Positions 48,001 through 64,000 of a DNA stretch of 64,000 nucleotides are shown piece after piece (positions within the stretch are counted from its first letter, which is position 1; each line of letters opens with the position of its first letter). The notes beneath the pieces are model-generated. The model was not told where the DNA came from. It did not search any database and was given only the letters and a program-made list of their open reading frames with translations. Both the position numbers and the translations under genes were made by a program. Source of the DNA: Candidatus Omnitrophota bacterium (GTDB taxonomy: Bacteria > Omnitrophota > Gorgyraeia > Gygaellales > Profunditerraquicolaceae); NCBI GenBank assembly GCA_030650425.1, contig JAUSED010000005.1, positions 14,932-78,931 of the forward strand, in the 5' to 3' direction.

Positions 48001-51000
48001 ATCGCCAAAGCAGCTACAGAAATATATAAGCATTATCTTAATAATCGGACAGATAAGCCAAGTTCGCCTGTAGAATATAAAATTATTCCTATTGGTTTTG
48101 CCGATGATATTTTACAGATTTTAGACAAATTAAATATTAAAGGCGGTAGTATTGAAATTTCAAATGGCAAAGATTGGCTTACTAGAGAAGTGTATGAATT
48201 TGTGGATATATTGGTTCAATATCTCTTGTCGTTTGAGGATGTGAGGACTTTGAGATATTGGAGGGATGATTTAAAATTTGCCTTAAGGGAGGCGATCGAT
48301 AACTCGATTGCGCATGCAAAGGGAAAAGTTTGGATAATCTGGGGAGTAAAAGAAAACAAACTTATTTCTGAAGTTAAGGACGAAGGAGATAAAAAATTTG
48401 AATTGAATACTATAAGCTCGGGGAAAAGAATTTTAGACAAATTTTCTGATCCATTTTCGGATGGCAAAGGTATTGGGCTTAAAATTATAAAGAATTGTGG
48501 CGCGGATAATGTATATATTGTTCTTCTTCTGGATAGTTCTGAAAAAATTATTGGGAATAAGCTTGTTTTAGAGAAATCATTCTTCAGCTCTCCGGTAGAG
48601 GCAGCAGAAGGAAGGATGCAAATCTTGACTTATAGAATAAGTTATAACAGTAAATTTGAGGCAATGGTTATTACTGCTTCAAGCGCTATTTTACTAAAGC
48701 CAAGCGGAGCTAATTTTTATCTTTTGGATCAGCCTATCGCAGGCTCCCCGCTTAAAAATAGATTTACGGGGCTTGCTCCGCCTACGAAGATTGATCCTGC
48801 CGCAGCATTTAATCTTTCCAATACAGATGTTTCTTACACAACTTCTTCTTTACCAATAGGTTCCATAAACGCTCTACAATACCATTACTTAACTTTAGAA
48901 TCTGGAGATAAGTATTGTGTTCCCGGAATTGCCAGAATTGGCGTCTCCTCTTCTCCATTGTTATCTTCGGAGATATTGGGCTTAGTAGTATTATTATTTC
49001 TATTATCATCATTCGTAGTCGCTTGCGTAGTAGGATTGATTTATAAACTTATATCAACATTAGTATTGATTTCTAAACGTATATCAAAGAATGGCACAGA
49101 AGAGAGATCTTGGATAGAAGTTGCAGTAGAAGAGTTGGAAAACATGCCCATATTCCCCGTATACAAAGAAAGAGAAATAGAGGAGCTAAATAAACGTATG
49201 ATAATTTTTGGGCAGCTATTGAGAGAAAAAGAAAGAGGCATAATTGTTATTAGTAATTTGAGGCTGATAGGAAATGATTATTATGAAAGTAACCTTAGCT
49301 GTATGTTGGATAAATATATTAGGAATAATAATTTAGAAACCAATTTGCTTATTCAACTCGTAACCTCAGATGTTAAAAGTTTTGCAAGAGTTTCTTCAAG
49401 GATCTTACGTGAGAGAAGCGAGATTAAGCGTAACAAGATAGCTGTAGAGTTAATAGAAGATTTATCGAGGATGCCCAAAAGATTCACAGTGTTTGCTGAT
49501 CTGCATTCTGGAGGAAATACATCGATTGATAATGTTTTATATTTTAGCAAATTGGAAGAACTAAAGAGGCAGCTTACCGCTGAAAATTACATCTCTAGTA
49601 GTCCTTTAGTAGGAGATAATTCTTCTCTTCAAAGATTAAATATAAAGTTAACTAAGCAGGCCTTATCTCGGGGTAGAGTAGATTTAACCAAAATATATGA
49701 TTCTAAGCTTAAGTATTTTTTAAGATTCTTGGTTAAAAATAATCTTGAGGATATAATCCTTATGGGTGGTGGTGTCAGGGATATATTCTTTGATTCCGAG
49801 ATAACCGATGCGGATGTAAGCATTAAATTATGGCTAACTATAGAGGAGGTAGCCATTTTTGATAGATATCCGCGTTATCCCGCTAACTCAAGAATATACC
49901 ACCGCGTATTAGAGTTAACTGAAAAATTATCCTTGGCATTGGGAGAAGAAGAAAATAGCCTGCTATGTTTTAACCACAACCACAAAGTGTATTTTAACGG
50001 CTTAGAGGTTCAGTATGCCGGGCCAAGGGAGGTTACTGCTGTAAGCGGGCAAAAAGTTGTGATCAACCGTTTCACGGTAGATTCTACTACAAGAAGAGCG
50101 TTTACCTATGTCTGTGGGGCGTCTGCACTTTTAATGGGCCTGGATTGTTTTGGTAATTTATACGGGTTTTATCAAGAAGCGCTTGAAGATTTACTCGCAG
50201 GCAGGACAAGATTAATTGGCAGACATAATTTTACCTTTGGTATGTTATTGCGTATGCTTAGGCTAAAGCATCAATACGGACTTAAAATACCTAAAGATGA
50301 CTGGGGTTTTTGCCTTGAAGAACTACATAAATGGAAGCAGAGTGGTTTGTCTAACCTTATTTGGACTCCAGTAATAGATGAACAGTTAGAAAAGGTTATT
50401 TATAAAGCGCGAGATAAAAAGTCGGCAGAAAAGGAGTTACGCTTTTTAGGGGTAATAGAATTGGCTGCGAATTTGAAGAGAAGTTCTAGCCCTCTTAAGA
50501 CAGGCGCATTGGTTGGGACGAGGTTTGAGCAACAAGTTGCCCGGTTGATGGGCGTGGGGTCCCTTAGCGAAACCCTACGTGGTATTGATACTAGAACTAA
50601 GGAAGAATTAGCTAACGGAGCTATAGGGCAGATTAGCTCGTTCTTAGCGGCAAAAGGCCTTTCTCCGAATGAGAATAAAGCGGAATTAGCCAAACAAGAA
50701 GCTGCTGAAGGGGTAGAGGAATTAATACTTGACGTAGATAAAATTATGCTTAATCTTCGTCCCAGCTCGCCGGTAATAGGTAATGTTGGCGGCTTAAATG
50801 AAGAGAGAATAATCGAAGAAGACGCGCGGAGCATATTACATGATGCGCCTAGCTTCATAGGAGAAATAATCTTGAGGATATTTAACGATAAATTAAATCA
50901 AAATGATATCCGCAAGATGGATATTATTTCTATAGGCGAGGGCGGCTATTCTACTGTATTTAAAGTAACCATTAATGATAAATATGCCTTTGTTCTTAAG

Positions 51001-54000
51001 ATTACGGGTGGGAAAGGAAGGGAATTATTTCGTTCTGATTTGGAAGACAGGTCGGATTGCGTGCACATGATAAAGCTGTATTCACGGGATCACTTGGCTG
51101 TTCAGGGTAGCTGGAAGCCAGTAGAATATAAAAATAATTATTGGTATTTAAATACCCAAGAGTTCGTTAATCCTATTGATGCTAAAGAATTAAGCGAAGA
51201 AGATGGCCTATCGATTATCAAGGACACAGTTAAGGCCTATTTTATCACTTGCGGAATTGATGAGAAAGGATGGAGGAAAAATAAGTTACCTTATATATTC
51301 TCGTTCCCCATAGACGTAAAGCTCGCAAATGTAGGTTTTATTATAAAAGAGGGTAGAAAGATAATTAAAATATTTGATATTGATTTGGCTAGAGATTCCA
51401 CTCCTTTTAGGATTTGGCTTGTTTTAGGCACATTAATGATACGAGCTTGGAGTAATAATAGCGCAGAGGCGATATTTAAAGGGATAGAAGAAGCAATGGG
51501 CAAGAAGAGTGCTAACGAGTTTATAAATATAGCTTATAACGAATATACGGATTTACTTTCTGAACCAAACTTTACAATTAAAGAAAAAGAAGAGGGAGAC
51601 ATTGAGATGTCCGAAACAGTACCTGATTCTTACGGTAAGCATACCCGTATAACGAAGGTATCTAAGCAATTGATAAAATGGTTTGTTGAGCGATCAAGCT
51701 CGCCGGTGGGCAAATTTAGTATTATTAAAGGCATGGATGTAGATAGTAGATTAGTGGATGGAGTAACCAATATTAATTACGCTATAGGTAATCAAAGATA
51801 TGCTTGTTGGGTGGATGATAATGCAGCCATTATTAGTAGAGCTAGCGTTTACACTAATCATACCGTGATTGCCTATCTAGGAAATATAATAATAGGTTAT
51901 ACGGTGTTCGGGCCGCTATTTCATTATCCTATTTATGTATATCAAATGGCAGTTATGCCGAGGTATCAAAGTAGAGGTATAGGAGCAGGGCTATTTAAAA
52001 AATTAGTAGATTTTTCACAAGCCCAGAATATTCATAAGATAACCTGCCATGTGAGTATTAATAATCCCTCTGGAGAATTTTACTTTAAATTACCTTATAG
52101 GCTCAAAGAAATCGCTGATATTGAATACGTTCCAGATGGTATAGCTCCCGATAGTAGTCAGATTCTTAGAGTTGAATATAGGATAGAAGCTTCAGGCAAA
52201 AATGCTTTAAAATCCAGCTCTCCGGCGGAGAACTACCGAATTCACAATAGAAGTAGCCAGGAGCCAAAAGTATCTTTACTGTTTTCAGCAGTTACTACTA
52301 TTGATAAATTTACGCGGAATCACGTGTTTAGTATTATCGTCCTTGGTGTGTTTGCTTATGTATTTCTTAAACTGGGATTGTATCCGGATAGGATCATCAG
52401 CGGTAAAGCAAGCGGATATTTTGATATCTGCCTGGAAGCTGTCAAGGCCACAGTTCTTAATAAAGAATTTCTATGGAAAACGGGCCTTGTTTATCTTGTT
52501 TTCGGCACGCTAACGGATTATTTAGCAAAGCGCGCAAACAGAGAGACGTATTCATGGAAAGCGTTTAAAGGGGTTATAAAATATTCTATTCTAAAGGCCG
52601 TTTTTGTCTTTGTGTTCTTTATTGCCATTGCCGGGTTGGATAAATTTTGGCGCGTAATCTTCTCAGGAATTTTGCTTGGTTTTATCCTCTTGAATATCCG
52701 CAAATGGATGTTCTATTCTGAATATCAGGAAAAAAAATCAGAGGCATTGAAAAAGCGGACATCCGAGATGTATTGGCTGACGCGGATATGGATTTTTGGC
52801 CAGAATTTTATTGTGCAGGTTTTGTTTCCCATAGAGCGTAGGGCGTTAGCCAATGCCATAATTTCACAGCTGCATTCTTTGTACAATAGCTATGGATTGC
52901 ATGAACAGGGACCGTCTCTTATTAAAAGAGAGCTTTTGGTAACTAAGATAGAAAGCTCGCTATTTATAAGATGGCTAAGGTATGCCCAGAAGGCCTTAAA
53001 TGATTTCATTGTAGTTAAGTTTTCGCGCGCGAAGGTTAAATTTATTAATAAGTTCTTTGGCAGGGCTTGGGATAATTCTGCCGCACTCATAGTCTTTGGT
53101 TCTATTGCGCCATTTGTTATAGCGATTGATGCGCTGCGTAAAAATAGTTTTCTGAAGAATAAAGCAGCTGGGATCTTACAAGATCAACGGGGGAAATCTG
53201 TCGATCTTGATTCTGGCCCCTCCAGCTCGCCGGTGGAGTTAGAAAAAGCCAATAAGCAGTTTATACTTGAACAATTAAAAGAAGCTTTCTTGGGAGAATA
53301 CAATCGTTCCTTTGAAGGAACGTATGGAGTGGAATTGATAAATTCTGTTTTTGATATTGTTACACTTTTACAGGATGAAAATGTTATCCACAAAAAACAA
53401 ACAGCCCATAACCTACTCTTCACCAAAACAGAGCAAGGTTTATCAAAAGTCTATATCTTTCCCAGAAAATTCCAGACCCCTAGTGAACTTGGTACTGGTG
53501 TCGCTTTTTTTGAATTAGGCGGTGAGTTGATTGCTTTGATCAAGGAACATAAAGACATCCCAGCAGATAGTAAAATAACCAAAGCCTACGAGGATATTAC
53601 TAGCGTAGAAGAACTTATTCCAGAACTCGAAAATACCAGCTTGCCTGAACAGGAATTAAAAAATTTGAAAGAAAAGGTCGTTAAGAGGTTTATTGCCAGC
53701 TCACCGGTGAAGAAGATAATAAAGATTAACTTACTTCAGCAGCCCCTTGAAATCTTCTATGGAGATGGCTGCTCCTTTAAGAATAGCACGCAGGGTTCCG
53801 GGTTTGATAGAGCTAGAACCATGGAGAGGAACAACAACTCGGCGGGTCAAGTCTTGAGAATGGCCGGGATGGGCAAATTATCTTCTTTCATAGTTTCTAT
53901 ATATAATGAAACTGCCTCTTTTGCGTTACGTATAGCTTCCTCCAGAGTTTCTCCTTGCGTAGCGCAACCTGTCAAGCTGGGTATAGTTACAGAGAATCCT

Positions 54001-57000
54001 CCAGAAGGCTCTTTTTCAAGTATTATTTTAAATCTGCGTAGCATTTTTAACCTCCTTCTTGATAACATAGAGTATAACCTCTTCGGTAAAGTAAGTCAAG
54101 CCAAAACTGCGGATGCATTATTTAGCGTCCAATTTGCCCATAGCTCGCCAGTGGAGCCAAAAGGAACAAAATCGGCCTTACCTTATCTAATAAATATAAT
54201 AACTTTTGAGAGTAAACTTGGGGCAATGGTGATTGTTGCTTCAAGCAGCATTTTAGTAAAGCCGGATAGCAAGGCAAGTTTGTATCAAAAGAGTATTAGA
54301 GCAAGCTCTTCGCTTAAAGGTATCCACACAGGGCTTTCTCCCCCGGAAAGAATTTATTATACCGCCTCATTCAATCTCTCTATCGCAGATATTTCTTCCA
54401 AAACTTCCTCTTCGCCAATAGGTTCCATAAACGGTCTACAATATCTTGTGTCCCCGGAATTAACCCTTATGATTTTAACAGGCCTTAAATTTATTGTAGG
54501 GATATTGGGTATAGTAGGATTGATTTTGCTCTTTAAGATAATAAAACGAAGATATAAGCGTATAGAAAAATACAGAATTGAACATTTCTTTGCCCGAATA
54601 GATAAGGGAGATATCCGGGGAAAGGATGATTATGATAAATTGATAAAAATGATCAATAAAGAGATTTATATCTCGCCATCCCTTTTTCCATCCCCTTTCT
54701 CTTATAAAACATATTTCCACGAGGCAGCGCTGCAGAGATTTGGCAAATTCATAGGCTTTTATTTCTCCGAGATGCTTGGTTCTCTTACGTCTTTGAAAGG
54801 AAGGGGAGTCTCAGAGCAGAGGCATATTTTTAGAGGATACGCCTTCTTACCCATAAATGTTTTATATCGTGTTTTATCTAGTGATGAATATAAGGGTATG
54901 CAGAATATAGCTTCTAAGCATATGGAAACTTTGCTGGGAAAAATAACGGATATAGAGCCCTTAAAGATGCTGGTTAATTGTTACGATGGCCCAATTTGCG
55001 GTATGGTCGGTTTTCGTCTTGGCAAAATAGCAGATGTATCACTTATTCCTCTTATGGCAACTTGGTACAATAGCTGGGGAAATGAGCGTATTGCTGCTGC
55101 TGAAGCCTTAGGGTCTTTGATAGGCAAGATTATAAGCGATATGAATATTGATTATTTAGAGATGGTTTTGATGGACCCTCGACTTGGAGACTTTCATGAG
55201 CCTGTTTTTGGCGCTCTCTGTCTCGCGCTTGGGGAGAAACGCAGAGAGAAACATATTCAAGGAGAAAAACTGGAAAGGTTTGCCAAGCTTTTGGCAGGCT
55301 TTATCAAGGGTAAGAAAGGTGAGGTTACAACCCGTGCCGCAGGCTGTTTAATCCAATTAGGAGAGCCTGCAATGATGATATATCTTCAAGACTTGACAGG
55401 AACGAAAACTGGTATGCCTGAACAACTCCCTATACTGCCTGATATAATCAAGTGGGCTACCGAGAATCTTCAAGATATATCTATATTAGGAAAGCTTTTG
55501 TCTGAAGAGAGATATACCGGGGATAATGAGGATTTAAGAATAACAATTATTAAAAGCTTAGCTAAGATAGCTTCCCCTGAGGCTTTTGGGACTATGATTG
55601 AGTTTTTGGATAGAAATATAGGTCCCGGAGGTATCAATAAATGGGAAGTCGCGGAGGATATGTTTTTATCGCTAGTCCGCCGGAAGAAGGCAGAGGATAT
55701 GGTTTTATCGTTAGCCCTTAAGAATGTAAAATTATTGCCCTTTGCATTAGTTTTGCTAGGAGCAACAGCTGTTCGTAGTATTATTGTTTGGCGAAAGGTG
55801 ATGAAAAACCTTGGTGAAGGTTTAATAGATAGCATAGTGAAGCAATATGAAGAAGCGCCTAAAAATGAGCGCTTAAAAGTTGAAATTGTCAGGACCTTGG
55901 GAGAGAATAAGGTTAGGGTTAAAGAAGCGATTGATGTGCTTGAGCGAGCTCTTGAGGAGAAGTTTCCTTCCTTCCTTTCTTTACATGCCGCCTTGGCGCT
56001 TTTAGAAATCGATCCCTGCCGCTCCTGCCACTACAAGATGAAGTTAGAAAAACGTAATTTTTTAGATTCAATTTACTGGCCACGAAGAATTCTTACGGCC
56101 AAAAAAGGCAAATATGTTTTACAAATTGTAATAGATGCTAGAGGTGTTTATCGAATATTTAGGCCTGGCCAAAGACCAAAGAATTTTAGAAAGATACCCC
56201 TGAAATTAAAAAGCATATTTGATAGGGGTAGAGGGCTTATAGAACCAGCGATTGCCCCTGAGAAAAAATCAAGAATTGACGAATTCCTGGAGTTGGCAGC
56301 GCAATTAAACAAGAAAATTTACTCCAGCTCGCCGGTGGAGGCAAAAGCGGCTGGAAATCAGGGAGCCAACTGGCGGCGGGCCAATTTTTCACCCGAGACC
56401 TCACTGCTCTTTGCTATCTTTCCACTCCAAGAGCAAAAGAGGGCTCTTAAAAGATACAGGGCCTTAATGCGGGATGCGGCCAAGATTATCCCAGAGTATA
56501 ACAGGCCAGAAAAAAATGTAGACAGTTTATCCATCTCATCGCCTGTCAATGAGTTAGAAAACAAATCCGCAACGATAGGCCGCTCCAGCTCGCCGGCGGA
56601 AGAAAATAATTTGATAGAAAGGTTATTTCCGGTAGGCGTCTTCTCGAGTATCTACTCCATCGATGACAATGCTCCCGCTGACAAGATAGAAACAGATACG
56701 ATATTTCCCAACTCTAAATCTATGAGTGGCGGGAGGCAAGTTAACCAGAGGCTTTGCGAAATAAAGTGGTTTACCGGAAAAAATGTAGAGGTCGATCTTT
56801 TCTATGACGCGTTTCTGCAGTGGAAGAGAAAGCTTTTTAAATTCCCGTTCGCCGGCAGGAGTGAACTCAACCTTGGTAAGCATAGCAGGATTCAGGACAT
56901 CCCTAATTTATGCTTAATTTTATCAAAGGAGACCAATCCTAGCGCTTGGGCCTCCTCAATTCCTCTCTTTAATCTTGAAGCTAGTTTAGGATTAATCGGC

Positions 57001-60000
57001 AGGCGCTCTTCAATCCCATCAATAAGCCAGCCACCAGGATTAGAGAAGACGTATTCTTTAGCGGGAGCAGACTTCTCAAATCTGTCGTCAAACGCGCAGA
57101 GTAGATCCCACAGGGAGCCTGTATCAAAGATAAAATATTTCGGGGCTCCATTTTTATCCACAACGGCCGCGGCCTTGAAGTCCTTAAGTTCCGATTTCTT
57201 CAATTTTTTAGGAATAGCCGCGAATTTCTCAATGGGTTCTATTTTGACAGACTCTTTTGATGACTTAACTAATGATTTTGATCTCATTTCTTCATCCTCC
57301 CTTATTTATAAACAGTATAACACATTCTTTTTCGATCTGTCAAGCCGGATATCGTTAACGAATAATAGGGGTGGTTCTATTTTAAGTAATAAAAATCGCT
57401 CCAGCTCGCCGGCGAAAGAGATAAGATATGATGCGGATGAGGCACAGGATGTATCTCTTGGCCTAAAGCCAATAAAAGCTGTGGTTGAAGCTGCGCGGAG
57501 CCTCATTAATGGATTAGATAAAAGGACTATAGGATTAAGTAAGGTTAAGGGAGAGTCTGTTATCGTGCAGTTTAAAAATAAAACAAAGCAGGAGAAAGTT
57601 TGGCTTAACTTTGGCACAAAATTAAGAGATTTTGTTTCGCTGATGGAGGTAAGATTACTTTCAGATCCAGATATTAAGGTAAAAGTCTTGATCAATATGT
57701 TTAGCAAAGACAGAAAATTCTTGCTAATTTTTTATACTAATGACAAGGTTTATTTCTATGATACTTATGGAGAGATAGGGTCTTTAATTAAATTAGATAA
57801 GAAGGCACAAATATTGGGTCTTGAAAAGTTATTAAAAAATAAAGCGGTAAAAAGTTTTATTGATTACGTCCTCATTGGATATATTTCTCAACCAAAGTTT
57901 ATCAATGAAATTATTAAAATTTATCCTGCCCGTCCCTATAAGGCTAGGGGGGGTACAGAGCTTCGTTTTGATAAGACGGGCTATGAACTTCCTGATAGCA
58001 AAGAGACAGAGTTGGGAAGGATTCTGGAAAAAGAAATGGTCATCGTAACAGATAAAATAGCGGAGGGTAAAATATTTACTATTTTACTTGAAAAAGATTC
58101 GCTTAATAAAGCCGCTCCACACTATCTTTTATTTTTATCCCTATGCGATAGGGTACAACTTTATAACGAAGCCGGTTTTATTGTTGAATATATCAAAGAC
58201 GGGAAAAATCACGGCTACAGCGATAACCTATTCATCAACACCTTTCTTCTTAGTATCGCTTTTAAGCAAGAGTCAGCATGGAAGACTTTAGATTTAGGCC
58301 GCCAAGCGACGCACGCGATTGTTATTGGCGGGGCAGATAGAGGCTCTTTAACAATTCCAACTACAGGTATAACTTTAGAAGCATTGAATATTCGTAAAGA
58401 CGGCGGGGCGTGGATACCTGTTAAGCGGATAAGAAAAGGCGATATCATCTCGGGAGTTTGCGGTTTAGGGGGAGGCCAGTATTATGTTGACGGTATAGGA
58501 GCGCCTTTAGGAGACAAAAAATTCCCGGCTATTCTTTTAGAAGGAAAATTAAATCTTCCAAGTGTAATCCGCTGGCTATCGCAAGATGGCTCCAAAGAAA
58601 ACATCCCTGTTTCAGAATTTTTGAAAGAACTTTTTGGCAGCCGAGCAGAGAACGGCCAGAGTAAAAAGATTATGTATAGATTAGAAAAATCTAAATCCAA
58701 AAGGCCGGTTTATGATAGAAAAACAGCTCAATGGTTGGAAAAAGTTGTTTGGATCATCGTTGATTATGGCAGTGAAGAAGAATCAGGAATATATACATTG
58801 AATAAAGTCGTTGATAAGTTGGTAGAGATGAAAGGAAAGTTTAATCCCCTCTCTGTTTATATCCTTAAAGATTTACGCAGGGCTATTATTGAGCATCTGC
58901 CTTACGCAGCTTTAGCCCAACAGGAGGCAATTGAACGCATTCTTTCATTAGCTTTGCCGCAAGTGAGCCGAGAATTAGCCGAAAATCCACAAATGCAAAA
59001 ATGGATAGGAACGGCTATCCGCGGTTTATGTCAGGCAATAAAAATTAACCTAATCTCAGCTTTAAGACTACATGCTTTATTGGCAATCGAATATTTAATG
59101 GTTACAGAAGATGTCAAGCAAGAAATAAATGGGTTAATAAAATCCCGCGTTCTTAATGAAAACAAGGGAAATAAACTTCGAATTATAGATACGGCTTTGA
59201 TTTTAACAGTAAGGCTAAATTCAAGCCCGATTCTAGCCCCGAGAAGCACTTTAGTAAAGCCGGATAATAAAGATTATTTACTTCATCTAGAAAGTATTGA
59301 GGCAAGCTCTTCGTTTAAAGATATCCACACAGGGCCTTCTCCTCCGGGGATAAATTATTATCTCGCCCCATCCAATTTCTCCGCCATAAATATTTGTTTT
59401 ATAACTTCTAGTTCACCAATGGAAGAGAAGGCAGATAATTCTGAAAATAAGTATCGTGCCCCCGGAATTACGCGCTCTAGCTCACCTTTAAAACGAAACA
59501 ATCGCAGGCAAGATAGAACATACATACCATCATCTTTAGAAAGATACGGATATAATTTGGGCCAGTATTTCGATAAGTATTATGCTAAATACCTGTCCGG
59601 GGGGATTATTGCTAAACTTGAGGAAAACGGTTATTTCGAAACCCTTTTTGGTACGTATGTAAACACGCCTACGCCTAATTATATAGAACTGGTTAGTGAT
59701 ACAGAGCTGCAAAGAAAGATTGGCCTGCTCTACCTGAGCGGTTTGGGATTCCTGATTGAAGATGGGGTAAGTTTTGCCTGGACAGAGGGGAATTTTATAC
59801 ATCCGATATCAGCAAGGCCTCTTAATATAAAATACGCAGAAAGCGAAGATTTATTCCTTAGAGTAGAGCTTATATTGCAGAATATGCCTTTAGCTCAGCA
59901 GGATGAGTTTATAAAGATGCACTTGGCGCCGATCTTGTGTAAAACCCCGGAATTCTTAGATAAATTGATTACCTTAATTTTAAATATGCTCGATATAGAA

Positions 60001-63000
60001 GATAAAGAAGGATTGATTAAAGATTTAGAAAATTCCTATATTGTTGTTAAGGAGAGGAATTTACCTAAACCTTCGATGTATATTTTGCGGGAATATCTTT
60101 CTACCTTAGTCTTGCATGAAATTGGAGAATGCATCTTTTTTGTCTTACCCGACACTCTTAAGGAAGAGTGGAGGACTTTAGTTACCAGGGAAGTCCTTCC
60201 TTATCTTGGCATCATATATCTTAGGGGTTATGGTAAAGCGATTATACAAAGAGCGCAGGAAATATCTGCACAAGGTGCATTAAGGCTTGGCAGATTGGAA
60301 GAGGAGTTCTTTGCCGATGCCTTTACAGTAATCTTTGACAGGAGGAAGAATATTTTTGCAGAATTTGGAGAAGGGATCCGTGACGAATGGGAAGAGTTCA
60401 TGATTAAGAAAGTAAAGCCATACTTAATCAAAAAGCACAACTCTGGCAAGAATAGCTGGCAAGTTGAAAGCGGAGAGATCATTAGAATCTATAGAAATTC
60501 AGCCATAATTGAACCGAATGATGTAGAAGAGTCATCGAGGGAATCTTCCAGCTCACCGGCGAAGCAATCCTCTTCTCCAATCGAAGGCTATGCCGTTGTG
60601 ACGGATGGTAAAACTGATTCTGCCGCCGAAGAGGGCAATCCGGGAGCACATTGCTCAACAGCTTTAATCTCCAGCTCAGCGATGGGTATAAGCCGCAGAA
60701 GCTTTATTAAAAATAGCTCTTTGGTTTTATTGGGTCCGTCGAGATTAGCCTCTCTCTTGCGTTATTTAAGCGCGTTATCTTTGGCAGGCTGTGGCGGAGG
60801 CGGCGGCACGGAAAACCAGGCCCCTGCGCCTCTTCCGGCCCAGACTGAACTGGAGTGGATAAAGAGCAGGGTTAACCCCTCAACATTCCTTGCGGAAACT
60901 TACCAAGGCCTTTCATCAACAGACCTCTCCTTTAAAAAGTCCTTCATTTACGACCAAGGTTTGGCTATCAGGGCCTTAGTGGAATTTGGCGGCCCGGAAG
61001 AGTTTGCGCTGGCTGAAAAGATGATTGATGCAAACGGAAACGGAAACGTAGACAGTTTATCCAGCCCATTGTCTGCCATAGACTTAGAAAACAAATCCAA
61101 AATGACAAGCCGCTCCAGCTCGCCGGTGGAGAAACAAGGTGAAAGATTAGAACTGATCCTAACTTATATAGGCGATTATCTTTTACGCAGCAGCTCAAGA
61201 AATTCATTCGGAGATAGAATATCAAAGCCTTTGGCTTTGAGTACGAGAATGTCTTTGTCTAAGCTCACTAAGGGGACTTTTGATTCTGCAGCTAAGGACA
61301 GGATAAAATCATCTTCGCAATCTCTACAGATATCTAACTCGAGGCGGGTTTTGAGCTTATGGCTCTTGTCGTCAATTAACGCCACAAGTTCCTTTGCTTC
61401 ATTAGCGGGAATAAGCCTTTTAACCTTTGGTTTACTTAAAGTATCATTGAGCTCTTTTAGTAATTTCTCAGATACAATTAGCGTAAATTCCTCATTGATA
61501 AATGCGTTTAAGATAGGCCTGGTCAATGAGCTATTCATCAGCGCGCTTATCCAGATATTCGTATCAATGACAACCTTAAGCATATTAATTAGCTTTTCTT
61601 ACTTTCTTTACAATGCGTACAATTTCGTCGTTAGAAAGAACCCTGCGGTTCTTAATCCGCTTGTCGATTCTAGAGATGAGATTCTTAAAGCGCAATTGCC
61701 AAGTCTCCAAGTTCAACCTTCGGGCAATGATCAGTTTTTCTTCCAATGGAAGTTCTTCTATAAGATTCTCAACCTGCTTAGTATTAAGTTCCAAAGTTAC
61801 TTTAGACATGTAAAACACCTCCTATCATTAATAAACTACTCGTCAACAAATTATAACCCAATGCCGCCTTTGCGTCAAGTTTATAATCTTCAGAGGATTG
61901 TGAATAAAGAGGAGAATAAAGGTGACGGTTCTATTTATTTCCAGTATTTCCAGCGAGAAAATACAGACAGTTTACCTATCCCATCGTTTACCAAGGAGTT
62001 AAGAAATAAATCCGTAATGACAGGCCGCTCCAGTTCGCCTGCGGAATTGAGTTATAGATGGAGTTTATTTATAAGGATTAGGGAAGGGGCAGATTATTTA
62101 CTCAATATTTTAAGACAACTTTCAGCAGTTAGTACTTTAAATGGTAGGTCAGCAGAACGACGGGATAAAAAATGCCTATTTTCTGTTACCAATGCATCTG
62201 CGCCTGTATATTCTGAAAACGCGCCAATAAGCGCGTCTGCGGGCTTAAGCCCTAAAGTTTCATATTTTGTGCCTAGTTCAAATGGCACCTCAAAGTCTTC
62301 ATCAATTTTAGTCCAAGCATTGATGAGAAGTATAAATTCCTTAAAGGCTTCAGGCGTTAGATTATCGCGCACCTCTTCAATGATTAAGCGCAGGATTCGC
62401 ACGGTGATATCTTCTGGACGTTCTGCTATTTTTTCAATCAGTTTTTCAGAAGGCGGATATCTGACTGCGCCTAAGGCAAAGATGTATTCATTACTATCGA
62501 GAATGAGCCGCAAATTTTGCCTCCCAAATCTTTTCACGAGTTTTACGAATTTTCTCAATTATTTCTTGCTTGCTAAGACCCCGGCACGGGGAGCTGACTT
62601 TGGACATAAGTTGTCGAATCTTGTCGATGCGCTTTTTAACTTCTTGAATATTTTTTCTCATAATTCTTCACCTCTAAGTAAGGTTAACATACCTAAAAAC
62701 TTTAGTCAAGTGGTTATTACTAATGACTACTTCAGTCCTCTTAGCCGTGGTGCTTCGCCGATTAAGCAGGGTTATCGTAGCTTTGCGGTGGAAGCAGCAC
62801 CTTCTATAAAGAAAGATTCTGCGCGCAAAACGCCGTTTAGGCCGAGTTCAAGTAGCCCTCTTGGTTCTCTTGTTACAACTCTTGGCGGATATCATTATAT
62901 CGGGTTGCGCCAAAGAATAGGACTGGATGACCATTTTGCCAATGGGCCGCCTGCGGTAGATACCTCTAGCCTATCAAGGATTTTTTCCATAACATCTTCT

Positions 63001-64000
63001 CCTATAATAGATTACATAAAGCGTCTACCTATTCTACCTATTGTGTCCCTTTCGGGAGCGTCCCCTATTGCTACCCACTCAGTTTCTCTTTTTATTGAGA
63101 TTATCCGTAAAGGCGCTGGCGCCTCTAGCCCGGTAGTTTTAGAGGCTAAGAAAAACTATAGAGATTTGATGCATGATCTGAGGGGAAATTTTATTGTTGT
63201 TAGGAGTTGTATACTTAAAGGCCAGAATGAGCTGCCTCAATATTTTGACAAAACTAATGCTGATTATACAGTAATTCCGGAGCTGGAAGCTTTCTTAAAA
63301 GCGGCAGATGTATTTATTCAGATGATGGACAAAGATTCGCGTTTCATACAAGAAGAAATCAATCAGGGATTACCCAGGGAAGGGCTGCCAAGAGAGGAAA
63401 CAGAAGAAACAATAAGCAAGAACCTGGGCCCATTTTATCAAGCGCTAAAAGGCCTTGAGAAATTAAAAGATAATTTTACAGAGCGGGTAAATTTATATAT
63501 GAACCTATGTGTTAGCGCCAGTAATGCGGCGCTTGTGACAATGAACAAATTATTATTCTGGACAGGGTATTCGATGTGGCCATGTGAAGACTTGAATAAA
63601 TTTATTAAAGAGATAGTGGAGCCTTTTAGGGCGCAGCACTTTGGTTATCTTCGAGAAAGCGCATTCACTAAAGCAGAGCCGCAGAAATTACTGGACGCGG
63701 GAATAGCAAGGAAAGCGGATGGGCGAATACATTGGAGCGTCTCTAGCGAGCAGGAATTATATCAGAAATTAGCCGAACTAGAGAATTCAAACATTGAATT
63801 TGTGGTTAAACAATGGAAGGCCTGGCGCAAGATCGAATTTACGATCAAAATCTCGAAGTTCTTAAAGGCCGGAGAAGTTTCTGTCTATACAGATGTTATA
63901 AGGGATACTTTGACAGACCTTGCTAACAATGCCATAAAGTACAGCGGGGCAAACAAAATAGAGATTAAGGTTTTCCATAAAAAAGGCGAGGCGCATTTTA
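1..64000 (+). CDS. giant multidomain ORF in frame +1, partial at both ends (no in-frame stop anywhere in the window; at least 21,333 codons)
   Basis: ORF track has no +1 ORF with both ends in the window; only eight short +2 ORFs and none in +3. Codon-by-codon read of 53761-54180 and 60481-64000 plus about 15 scattered lines found no stop. The translation is protein-like with many recognisable domain motifs. Confidence 0.85.
300..800 (+). other. domain: degenerate GGDEF-like nucleotide-cyclase fold (GGDEI)
   Basis: ...YIGFGDMVGVRVMNKAHS...VKYGGRAIRIGGDEIGIILP at 541-600 matches the DxDxFK...RYGGDEF pattern with F->I. Confidence 0.45.
2497..2895 (+). other. domain: CheY-like response-regulator receiver (REC)
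   Basis: KILLVDDESSLRELTRMF...YDLILTDLDMPRMGGLDLA...TPVIMTSGRG...LSKPYMNKEL. The acidic pocket DD, the phospho-acceptor D in TDLDMP, and the conserved T and K are all present. Confidence 0.85.
3730..4750 (+). other. domain: protein-kinase-like fold (kinase-like 1)
   Basis: Catalytic-loop-like ITDPKPENIIIT at 4351-4386, followed by IFFIDLDY (DFG-like) at 4411-4434. Confidence 0.4.
4822..4875 (+). other. internal Met plus twin-arginine (Tat) signal-like segment
   Basis: In-frame ATG at 4822, then MAKNIPLTRRGFIKLTAFLVGLGVL. TRRGFIK matches S/T-R-R-x-F-L-K and is followed by an h-region. It sits directly after an SSP linker (TTSSP). Confidence 0.5.
4900..6230 (+). other. domain: alpha/alpha-toroid-like (six-hairpin glycosidase-like?) family, copy 1
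   Basis: YRYYAAYSYDMAIYAIVLKML ... DGGFRMGPRGQ ... ESAIAFLDLLYSS ... DKEAGVFFRGSR. It is paralogous to 12870-13900 and to the fragment at 60880-61040. Confidence 0.3.
6240..8270 (+). other. domain: family-2 glycosyltransferase, processive synthase-like, with polytopic membrane region and a C-terminal beta-rich module
   Basis: QIPTRNEP...QVIDNSD (6520-6650), ILDVDS (6820-6840), GHNGIWRKSALDKIGGW...SEDTD (7030-7110), QKRTRKF (QxxRW-like). TM helices at about 7300-7800. Confidence 0.7.
9480..11800 (+). other. polytopic membrane domain (many predicted TM helices)
   Basis: Long hydrophobic runs, e.g. LLAVSLASLFIAGAALYLGYLL, ITPFIYIGVLFISAFI, GIPILVALIPLLKALLLIL, WLFSGPVALALVT. The function is not recognisable. 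Confidence 0.5.
12229..12378 (+). other. domain: LysM peptidoglycan-binding
   Basis: YIVKPGDNLSTIAQKTLGKAGLWPKIYELNKKVIGSNPNLIFAGQKFSLP. Confidence 0.75.
12870..13900 (+). other. domain: alpha/alpha-toroid-like family, copy 2
   Basis: YGKSYIYDLAVYIDVLSY...DKGVFRFTSDKKD...TEHQISAYAAFNWLV parallels 5040-5600. Confidence 0.3.
15650..16900 (+). other. coiled-coil-rich region
   Basis: Q/E/K/L-rich heptad-like stretch (NQLRRQMVAFNKLAEAINRL...QELSTVNAKISEAEQLLAKAQA...). Confidence 0.4.
26440..27060 (+). other. domain: HAD-superfamily phosphatase-like (sugar-phosphatase type)
   Basis: Motif I VFIFDIDGTVS at 26452-26484 (DxDGT), with downstream small hydrophobic/S-T motif II candidates. Confidence 0.5.
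29497..29682. repeat. R2 repeat, copy A (about 185 bp; 157-bp core at 29524-29680)
   Basis: 96% identical to 50482-50663. Frame +1 encodes SSSPIQTGALVGTRFEQQVARLMGVGSLSETLRGIDIRTKEELANGAIGQINSFLAAKGLS. Confidence 0.9.
29730..30650 (+). other. domain: sugar-phosphate nucleotidyltransferase-like (NDP-sugar pyrophosphorylase fold)
   Basis: VRPIVMAAGNATRFSRF (29728-29780; the G-x-G-T-R signature) and a later KGHGDAF. Confidence 0.5.
31600..35110 (+). other. module P1: expanded CofD/YvcK (UPF0052)-like domain plus a conserved C-terminal region
   Basis: CFGGGSGTLAIL at 31831, VHVLQSSIDDGGSTFK at 31930, GITFGPGSFFTSTMPHFLVKGLAKAL at 33330-33410. Paralogous to P2. Confidence 0.6.
35158..36640 (+). 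other. domain: glycogen/starch synthase-like (GlgA, GT5)
   Basis: MHIVMVSAEAYP from ATG 35158; PDVIHVHDWPISLIPLL (35560-35620; compare GlgA DVVHAHDWH); GILPGVDYEAFDPVED; C-terminal MPHSAVPGSFVPLYSLRYGTVPVVNAIG (compare GlgA SRFEPCGL..LY.LRYGT.P.V). Confidence 0.75.
37850..38860 (+). other. domain: ROK-family sugar kinase-like (copy 1)
   Basis: VLVGLDMGGSYIKLV at 37855 and VYLINDGDADAF at 38245. Confidence 0.6.
38880..42380 (+). other. module P2: paralog of P1 (expanded CofD/YvcK-like)
   Basis: CFGGGSGMLAIL at 39110, VHVLQTSIDDGGATFK at 39190, GITFGPGSFFTSLMSYFLAKGLAKAL at 40585. Collinear with P1 and about 55% identical at the amino-acid level by eye. Confidence 0.6.
42800..43790 (+). other. 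domain: ROK-family sugar kinase-like (copy 2)
   Basis: LWFGLDIGGSDLKTVVV at 42820 and VYVINDGDAAA at 43170. Confidence 0.65.
43850..45250 (+). other. domain: phosphoglucomutase/phosphomannomutase (alpha-D-phosphohexomutase)
   Basis: GGIMITASHNPYHYNGFK at 44130-44185 (the active-site Ser loop), GIAFDGDADRL at 44560-44590 (the metal loop), GGEQSGHFFF at 44810. Confidence 0.85.
46200..46850 (+). other. domain: protein-kinase/APH-like phosphotransferase fold (kinase-like 2)
   Basis: RLFIGDPTPFNIVLL ... KIIDLDGI at 46648-46740. Confidence 0.4.
46880..47760 (+). other. domain: canonical-length CofD/YvcK (UPF0052)-like
   Basis: ITSLGGGSGPQRL at 46890, ITVFDNAGSTGIMRR...PAVGDLRN at 46960-47040, ADIIIIGPGSITSYIPVLLTRGIAGAI at 47610-47690. 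Motif spacing matches YvcK. Confidence 0.7.
48180..48540 (+). other. domain: HATPase_c (RsbW/SpoIIAB anti-sigma-factor kinase-like)
   Basis: LREAIDNSIAHAKGKVWIIWGV...EVKDEGDK...DGKGIGLKIIKN. Confidence 0.5.
48640..48960. repeat. R3 repeat, copy 1 (about 300 nt)
   Basis: Shares ..gaggcaatggt.attg.tgcttcaagc...ttagtaaagcc.., ..ccaataggttccataaacg.tctacaata.. and the terminal gtgttcccggaattgcc with copies 2 and 3. Confidence 0.6.
49700..50400 (+). other. domain: nucleotidyltransferase head (poly(A) polymerase / CCA-adding enzyme type)
   Basis: IILMGGGVRDIFFDSEITDADVSI at 49757-49830 (the GGxVRD...DxD signature). Confidence 0.5.
50482..50663. repeat. R2 repeat, copy B (core 50506-50662)
   Basis: 6 mismatches over the 157-bp core, 4 of them synonymous in frame +1. 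Confidence 0.9.
50880..51690 (+). other. domain: kinase-like 3 (APH/PKL-like)
   Basis: ISIGEGGYSTVFKVTINDKYAFVLKI ... KIIKIFDIDLARD. Weak match. Confidence 0.3.
51720..52200 (+). other. domain: GNAT N-acetyltransferase
   Basis: IYVYQMAVMPRYQSRGIGAGLFKKLVDFSQ at 51940-52020 (the motif A R/Q-x-x-G-x-G/A). Confidence 0.65.
52230..53220 (+). other. membrane segment (4-6 TM helices), function unknown
   Basis: VFSIIVLGVFAYVFL, GLVYLVFGTL, AVFVFVFFIAIAGL, FSGILLGFILL, ALIVFGSIAPFVIAI. Confidence 0.4.
53731..53877 (-). pseudogene. hicA-like toxin remnant (C-terminal half only; no start, overlaps the hicB 3' end)
   Basis: The minus frame gives FAHPGHSQDLTRRVVVPLHGSSSIKPGTLRAILKGAAISIEDFKGLLK, which matches the HicA C-terminus (..hp...vtvPvH...GTLRsILKqAgls.eef). 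No N-terminal helix or start codon. In-frame TAA at 53878-53880. Confidence 0.45.
53847..54044 (-). CDS. hicB: HicB-family antitoxin (UPF0150)
   Basis: MLRRFKIILEKEPSGGFSVTIPSLTGCATQGETLEEAIRNAKEAVSLYIETMKEDNLPIPAILKT. AGGAGG at 54051-54056 lies 6 nt before ATG 54044. The ORF-track start at 54068 lies at or upstream of the predicted transcription start. Confidence 0.8.
   Translation of the reverse strand: MLRRFKIILEKEPSGGFSVTIPSLTGCATQGETLEEAIRNAKEAVSLYIETMKEDNLPIPAILKT
54071..54099 (-). promoter_or_regulatory. sigma70-type promoter for hicB: TTGACT, 17 nt, TATACT
   Basis: Minus-strand read: cTTGACTtactttaccgaagaggtTATACTctatgttatcaagaAGGAGGttaaaaATG. -35 at 54094-54099 and -10 at 54071-54076. 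Confidence 0.7.
54175..54468. repeat. R3 repeat, copy 2
   Basis: Same blocks as copy 1; ends gtgtccccggaattaaccctt directly before the in-frame ATG at 54469. Confidence 0.6.
54469..56320 (+). other. TM-anchored HEAT/ARM-repeat segment
   Basis: In-frame ATG at 54469, then MILTGLKFIVGILGIVGLILLF (TM). Repeats with AAEALGSLIG, TTRAAGCLIQLGEPA, IKSLAKIASPEA, IVRTLGENK, LHAALALLEIDP. Confidence 0.45.
56505..56601. repeat. R1 repeat, copy a (about 90 nt; ends in the 19-nt SSP-site)
   Basis: aatgtagacagtttatcc...ttagaaaacaaatcc...ggccgctccagctcgccggcggaag. Lies immediately 3' of the relE stop on the minus strand. Confidence 0.75.
56623..56883 (-). CDS. RelE/ParE-family toxin
   Basis: MLTKVEFTPAGEREFKKLSLPLQKRVIEKIDLYIFSGKPLYFAKPLVNLPPATHRFRVGKYRICFYLVSGSIVIDGVDTREDAYRK. 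Only 8 nt downstream of the upstream ORF's stop (translational coupling). Confidence 0.7.
   Translation of the reverse strand: MLTKVEFTPAGEREFKKLSLPLQKRVIEKIDLYIFSGKPLYFAKPLVNLPPATHRFRVGKYRICFYLVSGSIVIDGVDTREDAYRK
56892..57287 (-). CDS. putative antitoxin (unclassified family) of the RelE/ParE module
   Basis: 131-aa ORF immediately 5' of the toxin. AGGGAGG at 57296-57302 lies 8 nt before ATG 57287. Consensus promoter upstream. Confidence 0.45.
   Translation of the reverse strand: MRSKSLVKSSKESVKIEPIEKFAAIPKKLKKSELKDFKAAAVVDKNGAPKYFIFDTGSLWDLLCAFDDRFEKSAPAKEYVFSNPGGWLIDGIEERLPINPKLASRLKRGIEEAQALGLVSFDKIKHKLGMS
57314..57343 (-). promoter_or_regulatory. sigma70-type promoter for the antitoxin-RelE operon: TTGACA, 18 nt, TATACT
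   Basis: Minus-strand read: gcTTGACAgatcgaaaaagaatgtgtTATACTgtttataaataAGGGAGGatgaagaaATG. -35 at 57338-57343 and -10 at 57314-57319. Confidence 0.65.
59215..59490. repeat. R3 repeat, copy 3 (more diverged)
   Basis: ...ttagtaaagccggataataaag...gaggcaagctcttcgtttaaagatatccacacagggccttctcctccgg...gtgcccccggaattacgcgc. Confidence 0.5.
60685..61040 (+). other. Tat-signal plus lipobox lipoprotein-like segment, truncated by the R1/PIN cassette
   Basis: In-frame ATG at 60685: MGISRRSFIKNSSLVLLGPSRLASLLRYLSALSLAGCGGGGG. SRRSFIK is a twin-arginine motif and LAGC is a lipobox. Then FIYDQGLAIRALVEFGG (alpha/alpha-toroid-family N-terminus) runs into R1. Confidence 0.55.
61040..61131. repeat. R1 repeat, copy b
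   Basis: aacgtagacagtttatccagccc...ttagaaaacaaatccaaaatgacaagccgctccagctcgccggtggag. Lies immediately 3' of the PIN toxin 1 stop. Confidence 0.75.
61176..61583 (-). CDS. PIN-domain toxin (VapC/COG1569-like)
   Basis: MLKVVIDTNIWISAL...CRDCEDDFILSLAAESKVPLVSLDKDI. The conserved D in beta-1, the DD and the LVS.DKD signatures are present. Confidence 0.8.
   Translation of the reverse strand: MLKVVIDTNIWISALMNSSLTRPILNAFINEEFTLIVSEKLLKELNDTLSKPKVKRLIPANEAKELVALIDDKSHKLKTRLELDICRDCEDDFILSLAAESKVPLVSLDKDILVLKAKGFDILSPNEFLELLRKR
61585..61809 (-). CDS. putative antitoxin of PIN module 1
   Basis: MSKVTLELNTKQVENLIEEL... AGGAGGTG at 61816-61823 lies 6 nt upstream of ATG 61809. The ORF track extends to a GTG at 61818. 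Its stop is 1 nt from the toxin start. Confidence 0.55.
   Translation of the reverse strand: MSKVTLELNTKQVENLIEELPLEEKLIIARRLNLETWQLRFKNLISRIDKRIKNRRVLSNDEIVRIVKKVRKAN
61850..61878 (-). promoter_or_regulatory. sigma70-type promoter for PIN module 1: TTGACG, 17 nt, TATAAT
   Basis: Minus-strand read: cTTGACGcaaaggcggcattgggtTATAATttgttgacgagtagtttattaatgatAGGAGGtgttttacATG. -35 at 61873-61878 and -10 at 61850-61855. Confidence 0.7.
61955..62046. repeat. R1 repeat, copy c
   Basis: aatacagacagtttacctatccc...ttaagaaataaatccgtaatgacaggccgctccagttcgcctgcggaa. Lies immediately 3' of the PIN toxin 2 stop. Confidence 0.7.
62094..62558 (-). CDS. PIN-domain toxin 2
   Basis: ...LRLILDSNEYIFALGA...GADALVTENRHFL. 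The likelier start is TTG 62513-62511, preceded by GGGAGG plus 6 nt; that gives MRLILDSN... Confidence 0.75.
   Translation of the reverse strand: MRKFVKLVKRFGRQNLRLILDSNEYIFALGAVRYPPSEKLIEKIAERPEDITVRILRLIIEEVRDNLTPEAFKEFILLINAWTKIDEDFEVPFELGTKYETLGLKPADALIGAFSEYTGADALVTENRHFLSRRSADLPFKVLTAESCLKILSK
62494..62661 (-). CDS. putative small antitoxin of PIN module 2 (55 aa)
   Basis: MRKNIQEVKKRIDKIRQLMSKVSSPCRGLSKQEIIEKIRKTREKIWEAKFAAHSR. GAGGTGA lies 6 nt before ATG 62661. It overlaps the toxin start. Confidence 0.5.
   Translation of the reverse strand: MRKNIQEVKKRIDKIRQLMSKVSSPCRGLSKQEIIEKIRKTREKIWEAKFAAHSR
62681..62709 (-). promoter_or_regulatory. candidate promoter for PIN module 2: TTGACT, 17 nt, TAACCT
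   Basis: Minus-strand read: caCTTGACTaaagtttttaggtatgtTAACCTtacttagAGGTGAagaattATG. -35 at 62704-62709 and a weak -10 at 62681-62686. Confidence 0.45.
63130..64000 (+). other. domain: sensor histidine kinase core (HisKA H-box plus HATPase_c N-box), partial at the window end
   Basis: YRDLMHDLRGNF at 63160-63195 (H-box) and DTLTDLANNAIKYSGANKIEIKV at 63910-63980 (N-box). Confidence 0.6.

Follow-up and report, generated by a model that had tools for sequence, protein, structure and literature searches.

In-Frame Gene Modules and Antisense Toxin–Antitoxin Operons Meet at a Recurrent SSP Peptide in a Giant Omnitrophota Gene

The window analyzed here (a 64-kb stretch of contig JAUSED010000005.1 from a Candidatus Omnitrophota bacterium, to which all coordinates refer) lies within a single giant open reading frame (ORF). 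Frame +1 contains no stops in 21,333 codons, compared with 752–2,196 stops in each of the other five frames, and only three ORFs of at least 150 amino acids (aa) are fully contained in the window. An initial annotation, made from the sequence alone, had described the 3′ part as an array of in-frame cassettes separated by a 19-nt palindromic recombinase site. Its claim that all of the junctions keep the +1 frame is borne out by the absence of stops. We find that the recurrent element is a junction peptide containing the tripeptide SSP, which bounds both sense modules and four toxin–antitoxin (TA) units nested on the antisense strand. The reading that we favor, and hold to be somewhat probable, is that the gene is a mosaic resembling a polyprotein, in which modules are acquired and exchanged at these junctions under selection for an open frame.

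Giant ORFs of Omnitrophota (“archaeovorins”) have been described (West-Roberts et al., 2023, bioRxiv 10.1101/2023.11.21.568195) and are reported to be poorly conserved (Seymour et al., 2023, PMC10066038); a complete-genome survey of Omnitrophota dates from 2026 (10.64898/2026.06.07.730766). At issue here is how such genes are assembled and preserved and how they give rise to functional proteins; the main giant-gene paper states that the cleavage points of the proteins are unknown. Term searches of these three sources gave no mention of the SSP junction motif or of antisense genes nested in frame, and in this respect the window is unlike the published descriptions. A literature search for nested antisense TA operons returned nothing comparable.

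Results

The Window Belongs to an Archaeovorin-Type Giant Gene

The Pfam domains along the window are GGDEF, response regulator, GT2, CBM30, LysM, starch synthase, ROK, phosphoglucomutase, and CofD, and on the basis of this set the gene is classed as an archaeovorin type of Omnitrophota giant ORF (West-Roberts et al., 10.1101/2023.11.21.568195). Like other members, it has a stop-free frame of tens of kilobases (at least 64 kb here), many transmembrane regions, and fused carbohydrate-metabolism and signaling domains, with modules of glycosyltransferase, starch-synthase, kinase, GNAT, and histidine-kinase type. The exact 19-mer and the embedded TA families are found again in Omnitrophota metagenome-assembled genomes (MAGs), and Omnitrophota genomes are the source of relatives of the window's embedded elements. 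West-Roberts et al. (10.1101/2023.11.21.568195) list a SecA-DEAD-like helicase and C39 or S8 peptidase domains among archaeovorin features; none was found in the 21,333 residues encoded here, which include neither end of the gene.

A Junction Peptide Marks Module Boundaries

The tripeptide SSP occurs 47 times in the window against 3.7 expected, and the next residue is V, A, L, I, or M in 45 of the 47 cases. Control tripeptides, permuted or similar, occur 1–9 times each. The junction as a whole is compact and can be written [R]-[S/T]-S-S-P-[V/A/L/I]-[E/K]. It stands 12–20 residues ahead of the Pfam domain starts of GT5 (starch synthase, 35.1 kb), PGM (43.8 kb), CofD (46.8 kb), and GNAT (51.7 kb). 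This is the position predicted for the N terminus of each original protein. As would befit a polyprotein, SSP followed by an aliphatic residue marks module N termini, and it lies on both sides of the antisense units too. The initial annotation had treated the motif as a feature of the 3′ region, which it is not: modules at 35.1, 43.8, 46.8, and 48.1 kb have SSP at their bounds as well, and there are clusters of sites at 0.2–9.3 kb and from 42 kb onward. SSP is enriched 6–21 fold in most of the Omnitrophota giant frames from other genomes that were examined, compared with about 1 fold in ordinary genes. The long open frames of two loci from other genomes (such loci are labeled L132, L133, and so on), L132 (1,200 aa) and L146 (3,327 aa), contain no SSP at all, and some lineages may use a different junction or none.

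At the nucleotide level, CTCCAGCTCGCCGGYGGAG has nine matches with at most three mismatches, where none is expected; they lie between 48582 and 62046, share a single codon phase, and are confined to the + strand. A looser junction family with the common core AGCTCNCCNG comprises 13 copies between 48.58 and 62.05 kb. A recurrent 19-nt motif had therefore been recognized correctly, but it is not “nearly invariant”: three copies are exact, one has a single mismatch, and other codons are used at 15 of the 28 SSP sites in the 3′ region (34 of the 47 in the whole window differ from it in nucleotides). Nor does the reported spacing of 0.25–1.9 kb hold, since the DNA-conserved copies are separated by 0.26–3.1 kb and the full set of SSP sites by 0.02–1.9 kb.

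The 19-Mer Behaves as a Codon Spelling

The 19-mer encodes S-S-S-P-V/A-E. Its inverted arms had been taken as the sign of a recombinase core site, and this was probed by counting pairs in 19 aligned copies (13 from the window and six from other genomes) for the five proposed arm pairs. Standard pairs were formed in 62.4% of cells, compared with 60.8% in shuffled alignments, and 176 of the 500 shuffles scored as high. There was no excess of compensatory change in the arms among the 19 copies. The invariant columns (A5, G6, T8, C9, C11, and C12) make up the supposed loop and spell AGC-TCN-CCN (then G), the variable loop columns are synonymous third codon positions, and Val-to-Ala changes break the stem without compensation. 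Invariant S-S-P codons, synonymous variation, and the lack of covariation together are the signature of constraint on a peptide. Judged from these alignments, the “palindrome” is best described as this genome's predominant codon spelling of the junction peptide, with no demonstrated recombinase site.

Other readings of the motif were rejected. A hairpin or palindromic recombinase core drew no support from the pair counts, which gave no covariation. A structured RNA or tRNA origin found no Rfam match at E ≤1 in 44–64 kb, and no tRNAs. Use as a Shine-Dalgarno sequence with an internal start was discarded as well, because the codon that follows SSP is frequently GTA, GCG, or ATA, and start and spacing are inconsistent. 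All 13 sites are on the + strand in direct orientation, which is not the arrangement of a shufflon or invertible system.

The spelling itself is specific to the genome. The window's own version, AGCTCGCCG, occurs seven times against 0.34 expected. The same peptide is written in other nucleotides in L133 (TCCTCGCCG, seven copies against 0.19 expected) and in L152 (AGCAGCCCG, four copies against 0.19). Each of these lineage-specific spellings is about 20-fold above the expectation from codon usage; junction spelling is homogenized within each genome. The exact 19-mer is nevertheless present, in frame, in long open frames of at least five other low-GC MAGs (four labeled Omnitrophota and one Planctomycetia, among the matches listed) that, again among the matches listed, have no other similarity to the window. 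Most matches listed by the genome-wide scan for the 19-mer are chance occurrences in high-GC genomes, and the 13 motif matches in viral contigs are all in short frames and unrelated. Given this recurrence of the exact 19-mer in otherwise unrelated frames, the motif may also act at the DNA or RNA level or may have been exchanged horizontally. Taken with the homogenized spelling, the recurrence suggests that junction DNA is copied, or exchanged, as DNA.

Four Antisense TA Units Are Nested in the Frame

The four antisense TA units are hicB with a hicA remnant, a relBE-like pair, a vapBC-like pair, and a PIN-like unit (Table 1). They have the features of type II systems: two small adjacent or overlapping genes with the antitoxin first, family signatures, and, in three of the four, promoter-like sites. 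The PIN-like toxin (PIN2, the second PIN unit of the initial annotation) is a weak case, with a match at 4e-4, below the Pfam cut-off. The reported hicB–hicA pair is half intact, with a complete hicB, preceded upstream of its ATG at 54044 by GAAGGAGG, and only the C-terminal remnant of hicA. The RelE/ParE toxin has 53 homologs, several of which are named RelE/ParE by their sources, and full-length homologs of the PIN_3 toxin are 53–78% identical to it. The two best sigma-70-like matches in 53–63.5 kb (11/12) are both on the minus strand, 27–40 nt upstream of the relBE and vapBC antitoxin starts. Family membership and promoter-like sites together point to independent antisense transcription units nested in the giant frame, and by these signatures and the full-length homologs the TA genes are real. 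In the PIN homologs, substitutions increase from the second to the first to the third position of the PIN frame (e.g., 9, 21, and 54), and PIN identity is always above that of the antisense translation. By this pattern, the toxin is the constrained protein.

Codon Choice Points to Selection for an Open Host Frame

No TA unit brings a stop into the giant frame, compared with 6–24 per unit in the other two + frames; free-living relatives of the same TA families have 5–20 antisense stops per frame. The genes for relE and two antitoxins overlap the host frame codon for codon and contain no TTA, CTA, or TCA. In the giant ORF, TTA accounts for 35% of Leu codons. When codons were resampled from host codon usage, the probability of finding no stops was 0.004, 0.0013, and 0.17 for relE and the two antitoxins, and the product over seven genes was ∼8e-8. 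(Within-gene synonymous shuffling was dropped as too conservative, the forbidden codons being already absent.) In the overlap phase of the PIN genes, Tyr codons are the main source of stops, and Tyr is absent from 13 of 13 members of the PIN clade. The host frame is open despite third-position differences of 50–64% between PIN homologs. These figures show long-term selection that keeps the host frame open across the TA units, and the selection on the host frame there seems to be only for the absence of stops. Codon log-likelihoods, calculated for the native frame of segments, were dominated by stop penalties and were uninformative; the antisense segments have lower scores, with GC skew near zero to negative.

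More distant members of the PIN_3 family were also inspected. Of 59 such genes (metagenome loci L153–L229, 29–40% identical), 24 have no stop in the wobble-aligned antisense frame, compared with 9.4 expected from synonymous shuffles. The antisense open stretches in these loci run to 230–320 aa and in many cases span exactly the complete TA pair, with neighboring genes on the opposite strand. An antisense strand free of stops may thus be more generally characteristic of this TA family.

Modules Differ at Junctions between Genomes

In every context examined, the PIN operon lies antisense in a long stop-free frame (L132, L133, L135–L140, and L150–L152), of 14.1 kb in L133, 12.5 kb in L152, and 6.5 kb in L135, and it lies between SSP junctions wherever the contig is long enough to include both sides. 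The vapBC-like module (61090–61887 in the window) is the only part common to the window and L132, L133, L135, and L136. The flanking modules in those genomes are different protein types, not diverged versions. L152 and L135 are 99.7–100% identical over 2.2 kb and are then unrelated, starting from inside the SSP codons. Similarity to L152 returns in the final 27 nt of L135, beside another GSSPLG junction. In this comparison, the inter-junction segment is 775 nt long in one genome, with an antisense PIN_3 operon, and 4,638 nt in the other, with sense modules and a different antisense TA. L152 is consistent with the independent assemblies L136–L140 and L151. Comparison of related genomes, which the initial annotation had proposed, thus did yield module-level differences at junctions, in a related lineage, and these support a cassette-like dynamic as judged by sequence comparison.

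The junctions around the antisense units are parts of longer direct repeats. An 87-nt repeat in three copies, 79–83% identical, borders the vapBC unit at either end but the relBE and PIN2 units at one end each, and the relBE unit carries a 28-nt direct repeat (CGCTCCAGCTCGCCGGCGRAAGA...). Flanking repeats vary by host: 87 and 28 nt in the window, ∼60 nt in L136, and 77 nt in L147. The repeat in L136 and L152 encodes DTTLNSPNGSS[F/S]GSSP. An attC-like reading of the 87-nt repeat was rejected; it has a weak AT-rich hairpin on the minus strand, and no R″/R′ core boxes are conserved in the three copies.

The relBE family also occurs outside giant genes. In L147–L149 (Logan SRR223877xx), a ∼770-nt relBE module sits in a 51% GC contig with ordinary genes, a non-giant context. 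It is flanked by a 77-nt, ∼92% identical duplication (L147 101–177 and 950–1026) of the 3′ end of a 664-aa host gene, stop codon included. The antisense frame of this relBE is stop-free and in phase with the duplicated C terminus. The arrangement resembles the attL/attR of an integrated element, in a unit without an integrase.

Further copies show other states. The relBE family lies just beyond the 3′ end of the 3,327-aa open frame in L146 (Omnitrophota JBFMHM010000011, 525–1222), with four antisense stops, and between ordinary genes in L145 (JAUSCZ010000023, 8837–9522), with one. These copies suggest departure from the read-through state, or truncation of the giant frame at the TA unit. In L133 (ERZ1292640, a Hainich groundwater contig), REP-like palindromic repeats at ∼7600–12400 are translated in frame (...IASSPSFQRWLLAMTDKATASSPIIAGTAHCAVPATRGIPRNDG..., two to three copies), the 14-kb frame contains a ∼4.6-kb internal duplication followed by different modules, and an antisense DUF2283 gene is nested at 3091–3309.

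Discussion

We propose that the giant ORF arose from whole genes, once independent, that were strung together with no stop codons between them and are joined at the junction peptide, a few residues before each module's native N terminus. New DNA would enter between modules with the junction sequence duplicated or shared, leaving the insert bracketed by two junction copies. Modules could then be gained or exchanged by recombination at the junction repeats, with no dedicated integrase. Among the inserts would be selfish type II TA operons with their own promoters, which could coexist with the giant frame in antisense orientation only. That orientation would allow synonymous choice (no TTA, CTA, or TCA) and residue choice (no Tyr) to keep the host frame open, with purifying selection removing whatever closes it. 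The junction itself may be a flexible linker or a proteolytic processing site that frees the sense enzymes and discards the meaningless antisense translation. Such a role is suggested by three features of the junction: it stands at module N termini, it borders the antisense translation at either end, and at one site the structural model of it has low confidence. The TA operons, for their part, may stabilize a repeat-rich gene against deletion.

Several observations weigh against this mosaic model. The window contains no protease domain, which leaves the processing-site role as something we infer. By chance, 16% of distant PIN homologs are expected to be antisense-open, and part of the openness is thus a matter of composition. 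The L135 arrangement comes from a single scaffold, and assemblers may be misled by repeats at junctions. Searches for a close relative of the window's own locus were negative, the exact TA proteins have no database record, and polymorphism is consequently known from a related lineage only. In L133, the two copies of the 4.6-kb duplication diverge ∼105 nt past an SSP and not at it. Finally, recurrence of the 19-mer across at least five species is more nucleotide conservation than peptide constraint alone predicts.

A rival reading is a dedicated site-specific cassette system, one in which a recombinase or integrase recognizes junction DNA with the 19-mer as its core, in the manner of integrons or of repeat duplication in CRISPR adaptation. 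Direct junction repeats flanking each antisense module, the 77-nt target duplication at the relBE module of a non-giant host, the breakpoint within SSP codons between near-identical contigs, and the direct orientation of all sites would fit such a system. So would the exact 19-mer in unrelated giant frames of at least five species, the ∼20-fold excess of genome spellings, and the TA cassettes, which are typical integron cargo and include distant relatives of the PIN operon in a true integron. We nonetheless consider it unlikely. Covariation is lacking in the arms, conservation is that of codons that vary synonymously, the peptide is kept with other nucleotides in other lineages and at 34 of the 47 window sites, attC R″/R′ boxes are absent, and the flanking repeats change in sequence and length with the host (28, ∼60, 77, and 87 nt). 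No recombinase or integrase gene was seen in the window or the related giant-frame loci, all of which fall wholly within the open frame. Cross-species nucleotide recurrence and the long flanking duplications are not fully explained, and for this reason a dedicated recombinase stays under consideration. The boldest version of the idea, which we entertain as a doubtful but conceivable extension, is that giant genes are open-ended in-frame gene-capture arrays, with a dedicated SSP insertion mechanism that duplicates the junction (compare repeat duplication in CRISPR adaptation or the reuse of attC by integrons), a TA guild whose stop-free antisense strands evolved for such frames, and a junction peptide that is the long-sought cleavage site at which the giant translation product is divided into many proteins. 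If this were true, each captured unit would arrive bracketed by processing sites.

Constraint at the peptide level could also mean a plain protein linker inherited vertically, with modules fused once and differences between genomes due to divergence. Giant ORFs are reported to be poorly conserved (PMC10066038), and flanks might on this account diverge beyond recognition around conserved TA genes. The initial annotation had foreseen codon-level conservation of a linker without structural variation; the conservation is there, but the genomes do vary, L152 and L135 differing at junctions. They are 99.7–100% identical up to a junction and unrelated past it. Flanking modules are different protein types between genomes, junction repeats surround the inserts, spelling is homogenized per genome, and the relBE family occurs outside giant genes as well, all of which makes a purely vertical origin distinctly improbable. 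Very improbable, in our view, is a signal in RNA, with the motif folding into a hairpin by which the giant mRNA is cut into messages of unit length or its translation is regulated. A 5-bp stem is possible in the consensus, nucleotides are conserved across species, and the minus-strand motif region is terminator-like after the relBE and PIN1 operons, but shuffled alignments pair equally well, the stem is disrupted by uncompensated Val-to-Ala changes, Rfam has no match in 44–64 kb, and a downstream start codon or Shine-Dalgarno sequence is not consistently present. A decaying, untranslated tail, with the 3′ region a graveyard of gene fragments and its open frame meaningless, is scarcely credible. 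It would accommodate the truncated hicA, the Tat lipoprotein fragment, and several stretches with near-zero GC skew and no family match; it would not account for zero stops over 5,100 codons of mixed-orientation DNA, the purging of stop-creating codons from the TA genes (joint P ∼8e-8), openness maintained in diverged homologs, or sense modules that resume past antisense ones.

The integron-like array proposed initially survives in part. Like chromosomal integrons, the window has gene-sized units of 0.25–1.9 kb, TA and GNAT content, a recurring site at unit bounds, and TA units that may stabilize the array. Unlike them, it has no attC (RYYYAAC/GTTRRRY boxes are lacking, as had been noted from the start, and the arms do not covary) and no conserved bulged hairpin. 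Co-oriented promoterless cassettes are not what is found either: orientation is mixed, the four TA units are antisense, three of them with strong promoter-like sites of their own, and stop codons are missing from the sense units. A single frame reads through every unit, and the recurring site is a peptide motif whose DNA varies by lineage. The resemblance is one of content and logic, not of membership. Canonical integrons with a tyrosine recombinase and co-oriented small cassettes (PIN_3, ParE, and others) are present in L141 (3068–10100) and L142, with attC sites that end in ...AAACGTTGG or GTTAGG (GTTRRRY). The distant relatives of the window's PIN operon that they carry (35% identity) have 10–14 antisense stops per frame.

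MARTX and polymorphic toxins and viral polyproteins are modular effector arrays that are released by processing and exchanged by recombination. The window shares with them independent modules in one polypeptide, short conserved junctions, and strain-variable repertoires. It differs in that its modules are housekeeping-type enzymes and even antisense DNA, and in a scale at least 10 times larger. Rickettsia palindromic elements are inserted in frame in coding genes and, like the TA units here, are selfish DNA tolerated inside a gene as frame-preserving; in embedded antisense overlapping genes, both strands of one DNA stretch are kept open. Unlike either, the window holds whole two-gene operons with promoter-like sites, in an arrangement that recurs across genomes.

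The SSP junction is a candidate boundary or processing signal that is searchable in existing proteomes and can be used to cut giant proteins for structure prediction. Complete, promoter-bearing TA operons reversed in the frame, purged of codons and residues that would close it, in an arrangement conserved across deeply diverged genomes, are an unusually clear natural case of dual-strand selection. Capture of DNA at junctions may be how giant genes grow, and selfish elements may become adapted to life within such genes. There is also a consequence for annotation, as gene callers split the giant ORF or miss the nested genes.

Other Features of the Window

Module checks with Pfam, NCBIfam, PDB sequences, and Foldseek on both strands agree with the initial annotation that unrelated gene-sized modules in both orientations are separated by the recurrent motif (Table 1). 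From its list, the GNAT, HEAT, CCA-type fold, HicB, RelE/ParE, PIN_3, and Tat lipoprotein assignments were confirmed; the “kinase-like” label of 50764–51696 has no support from Pfam, NCBIfam, or PDB sequences. The structural model of the CCA-fold module (pLDDT 73, pTM 0.72) places the SSP at a disordered N terminus, with pLDDT <50 at the junction, and the only sequence relatives of the module are C-terminal domains of HEAT-repeat proteins. For the 606-aa module, sequence searches were empty and JGI metagenomes contain no relative. The internal organization of the gene is strongly non-uniform. About 20 kb (9337–29503) are without any SSP junction, and the 5,000 consecutive residues encoded by 15001–30000 have no Pfam match at E ≤1e-3.

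Table 1. Coordinates of Features in the 64-kb Window
Feature	Position	Strand	Remarks
Stop-free frame, at least 21,333 codons	1–63999	+	Archaeovorin-like giant ORF; runs past both window ends
SSP junction FSSPVE	48582–48600	+	CTTCAGCTCTCCGGTAGAG
R3 repeat copy a	48632–48881	.	GC skew negative
Module with transmembrane segment	48949–49596	+	No family match
Class II CCA-adding-enzyme-fold module	49597–50484	+	Foldseek E 5e-6, TM 0.53
SSP junction PSSPVI	50760–50778	+	
311-aa module	50764–51696	+	Family unassigned
SSP junction SSSPVG	51693–51711	+	
GNAT acetyltransferase module	51697–52215	+	Full length; Pfam 8e-10
SSP junction SSSPAE	52212–52230	+	
Membrane-protein module	52216–53223	+	
SSP junction SSSPVE	53220–53238	+	Exact 19-mer
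158-aa module	53224–53697	+	No family assigned; missing from the initial list
SSP junction ASSPVK	53694–53712	+	Left flank of hic module
hicA remnant	53737–53853	−	C-terminal ∼39 residues only, no start codon
hicB antitoxin	53847–54044	−	Intact; HicB 1.6e-13; ATG at 54044, ORF open back to 54068
Promoter-like site upstream of hicB	54071–54099	−	10/12 matches
SSP junction HSSPVE	54138–54156	+	Right flank of hic module
R3 repeat copy b	54194–54443	.	
Transmembrane and HEAT-repeat module	54409–56325	+	HEAT_2, Pfam 6e-8
SSP junction	56322–56340	+	Exact 19-mer
87-nt junction repeat copy 1	56514–56600	+	Two SSP sites; 3′ of relE on minus strand, hairpin- and terminator-like there
RelE/ParE-family toxin	56623–56883	−	86 aa; no TTA, CTA, or TCA codons
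Cognate antitoxin of RelE/ParE toxin	56892–57287	−	131 aa; gene pair recurs in L145–L149, L230, L231
Promoter-like site upstream of relBE antitoxin	57314–57343	−	TTGACA-18-TATACT, 11/12
SSP junction RSSSPAK	57397–57424	+	Right flank of relBE module; 28-nt direct repeat of end of 87-nt copy 1
606-aa module	57403–59220	+	No relatives found
R3 repeat copy c	59229–59420	.	
357-aa module	59479–60549	+	No family match by sequence searches
SSP junction SSSPAK	60546–60564	+	
Tat lipoprotein N-terminal fragment	60682–61043	+	RRSFIK...LAGC; Tat signal and lipobox read from sequence
87-nt junction repeat copy 2	61044–61130	+	Ends in exact 19-mer 61113–61131
PIN_3 (VapC-like) toxin	61176–61583	−	135 aa, Tyr-free; Pfam 6.8e-18
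VapB15-like antitoxin	61585–61818	−	No TTA, CTA, or TCA codons
Promoter-like site upstream of VapB15-like antitoxin	61850–61878	−	TTGACG-17-TATAAT, 11/12
87-nt junction repeat copy 3	61959–62045	+	Ends in junction RSSSPAE 62028–62046
PIN-like toxin (PIN2)	62094–62558	−	154 aa; Pfam 4e-4, below curated cut-off
Small upstream ORF	62494–62661	−	Putative PIN2 antitoxin
SSP-dense stretch	62665–63123	+	Four sites; no family match; GC skew near zero
Start of histidine-kinase-like module	63124–63999	+	N-box NNAIKYS at window end; domain cut off

Each of the three R3 copies starts just past an SSP. A further SSP and a transmembrane stretch come after copies a and b, and SSPs only after copy c. Their GC skew (−0.07, −0.07, and −0.23) resembles that of the antisense TA units, compared with +0.14 to +0.39 for sense modules, and they have no Rfam match. 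The copies may be non-coding or antisense-derived DNA carried in frame. At the Tat lipoprotein fragment, the ATG is directly preceded by a junction variant, CTCCAGCTCAGCG (...TCC AGC TCA GCG ATG).

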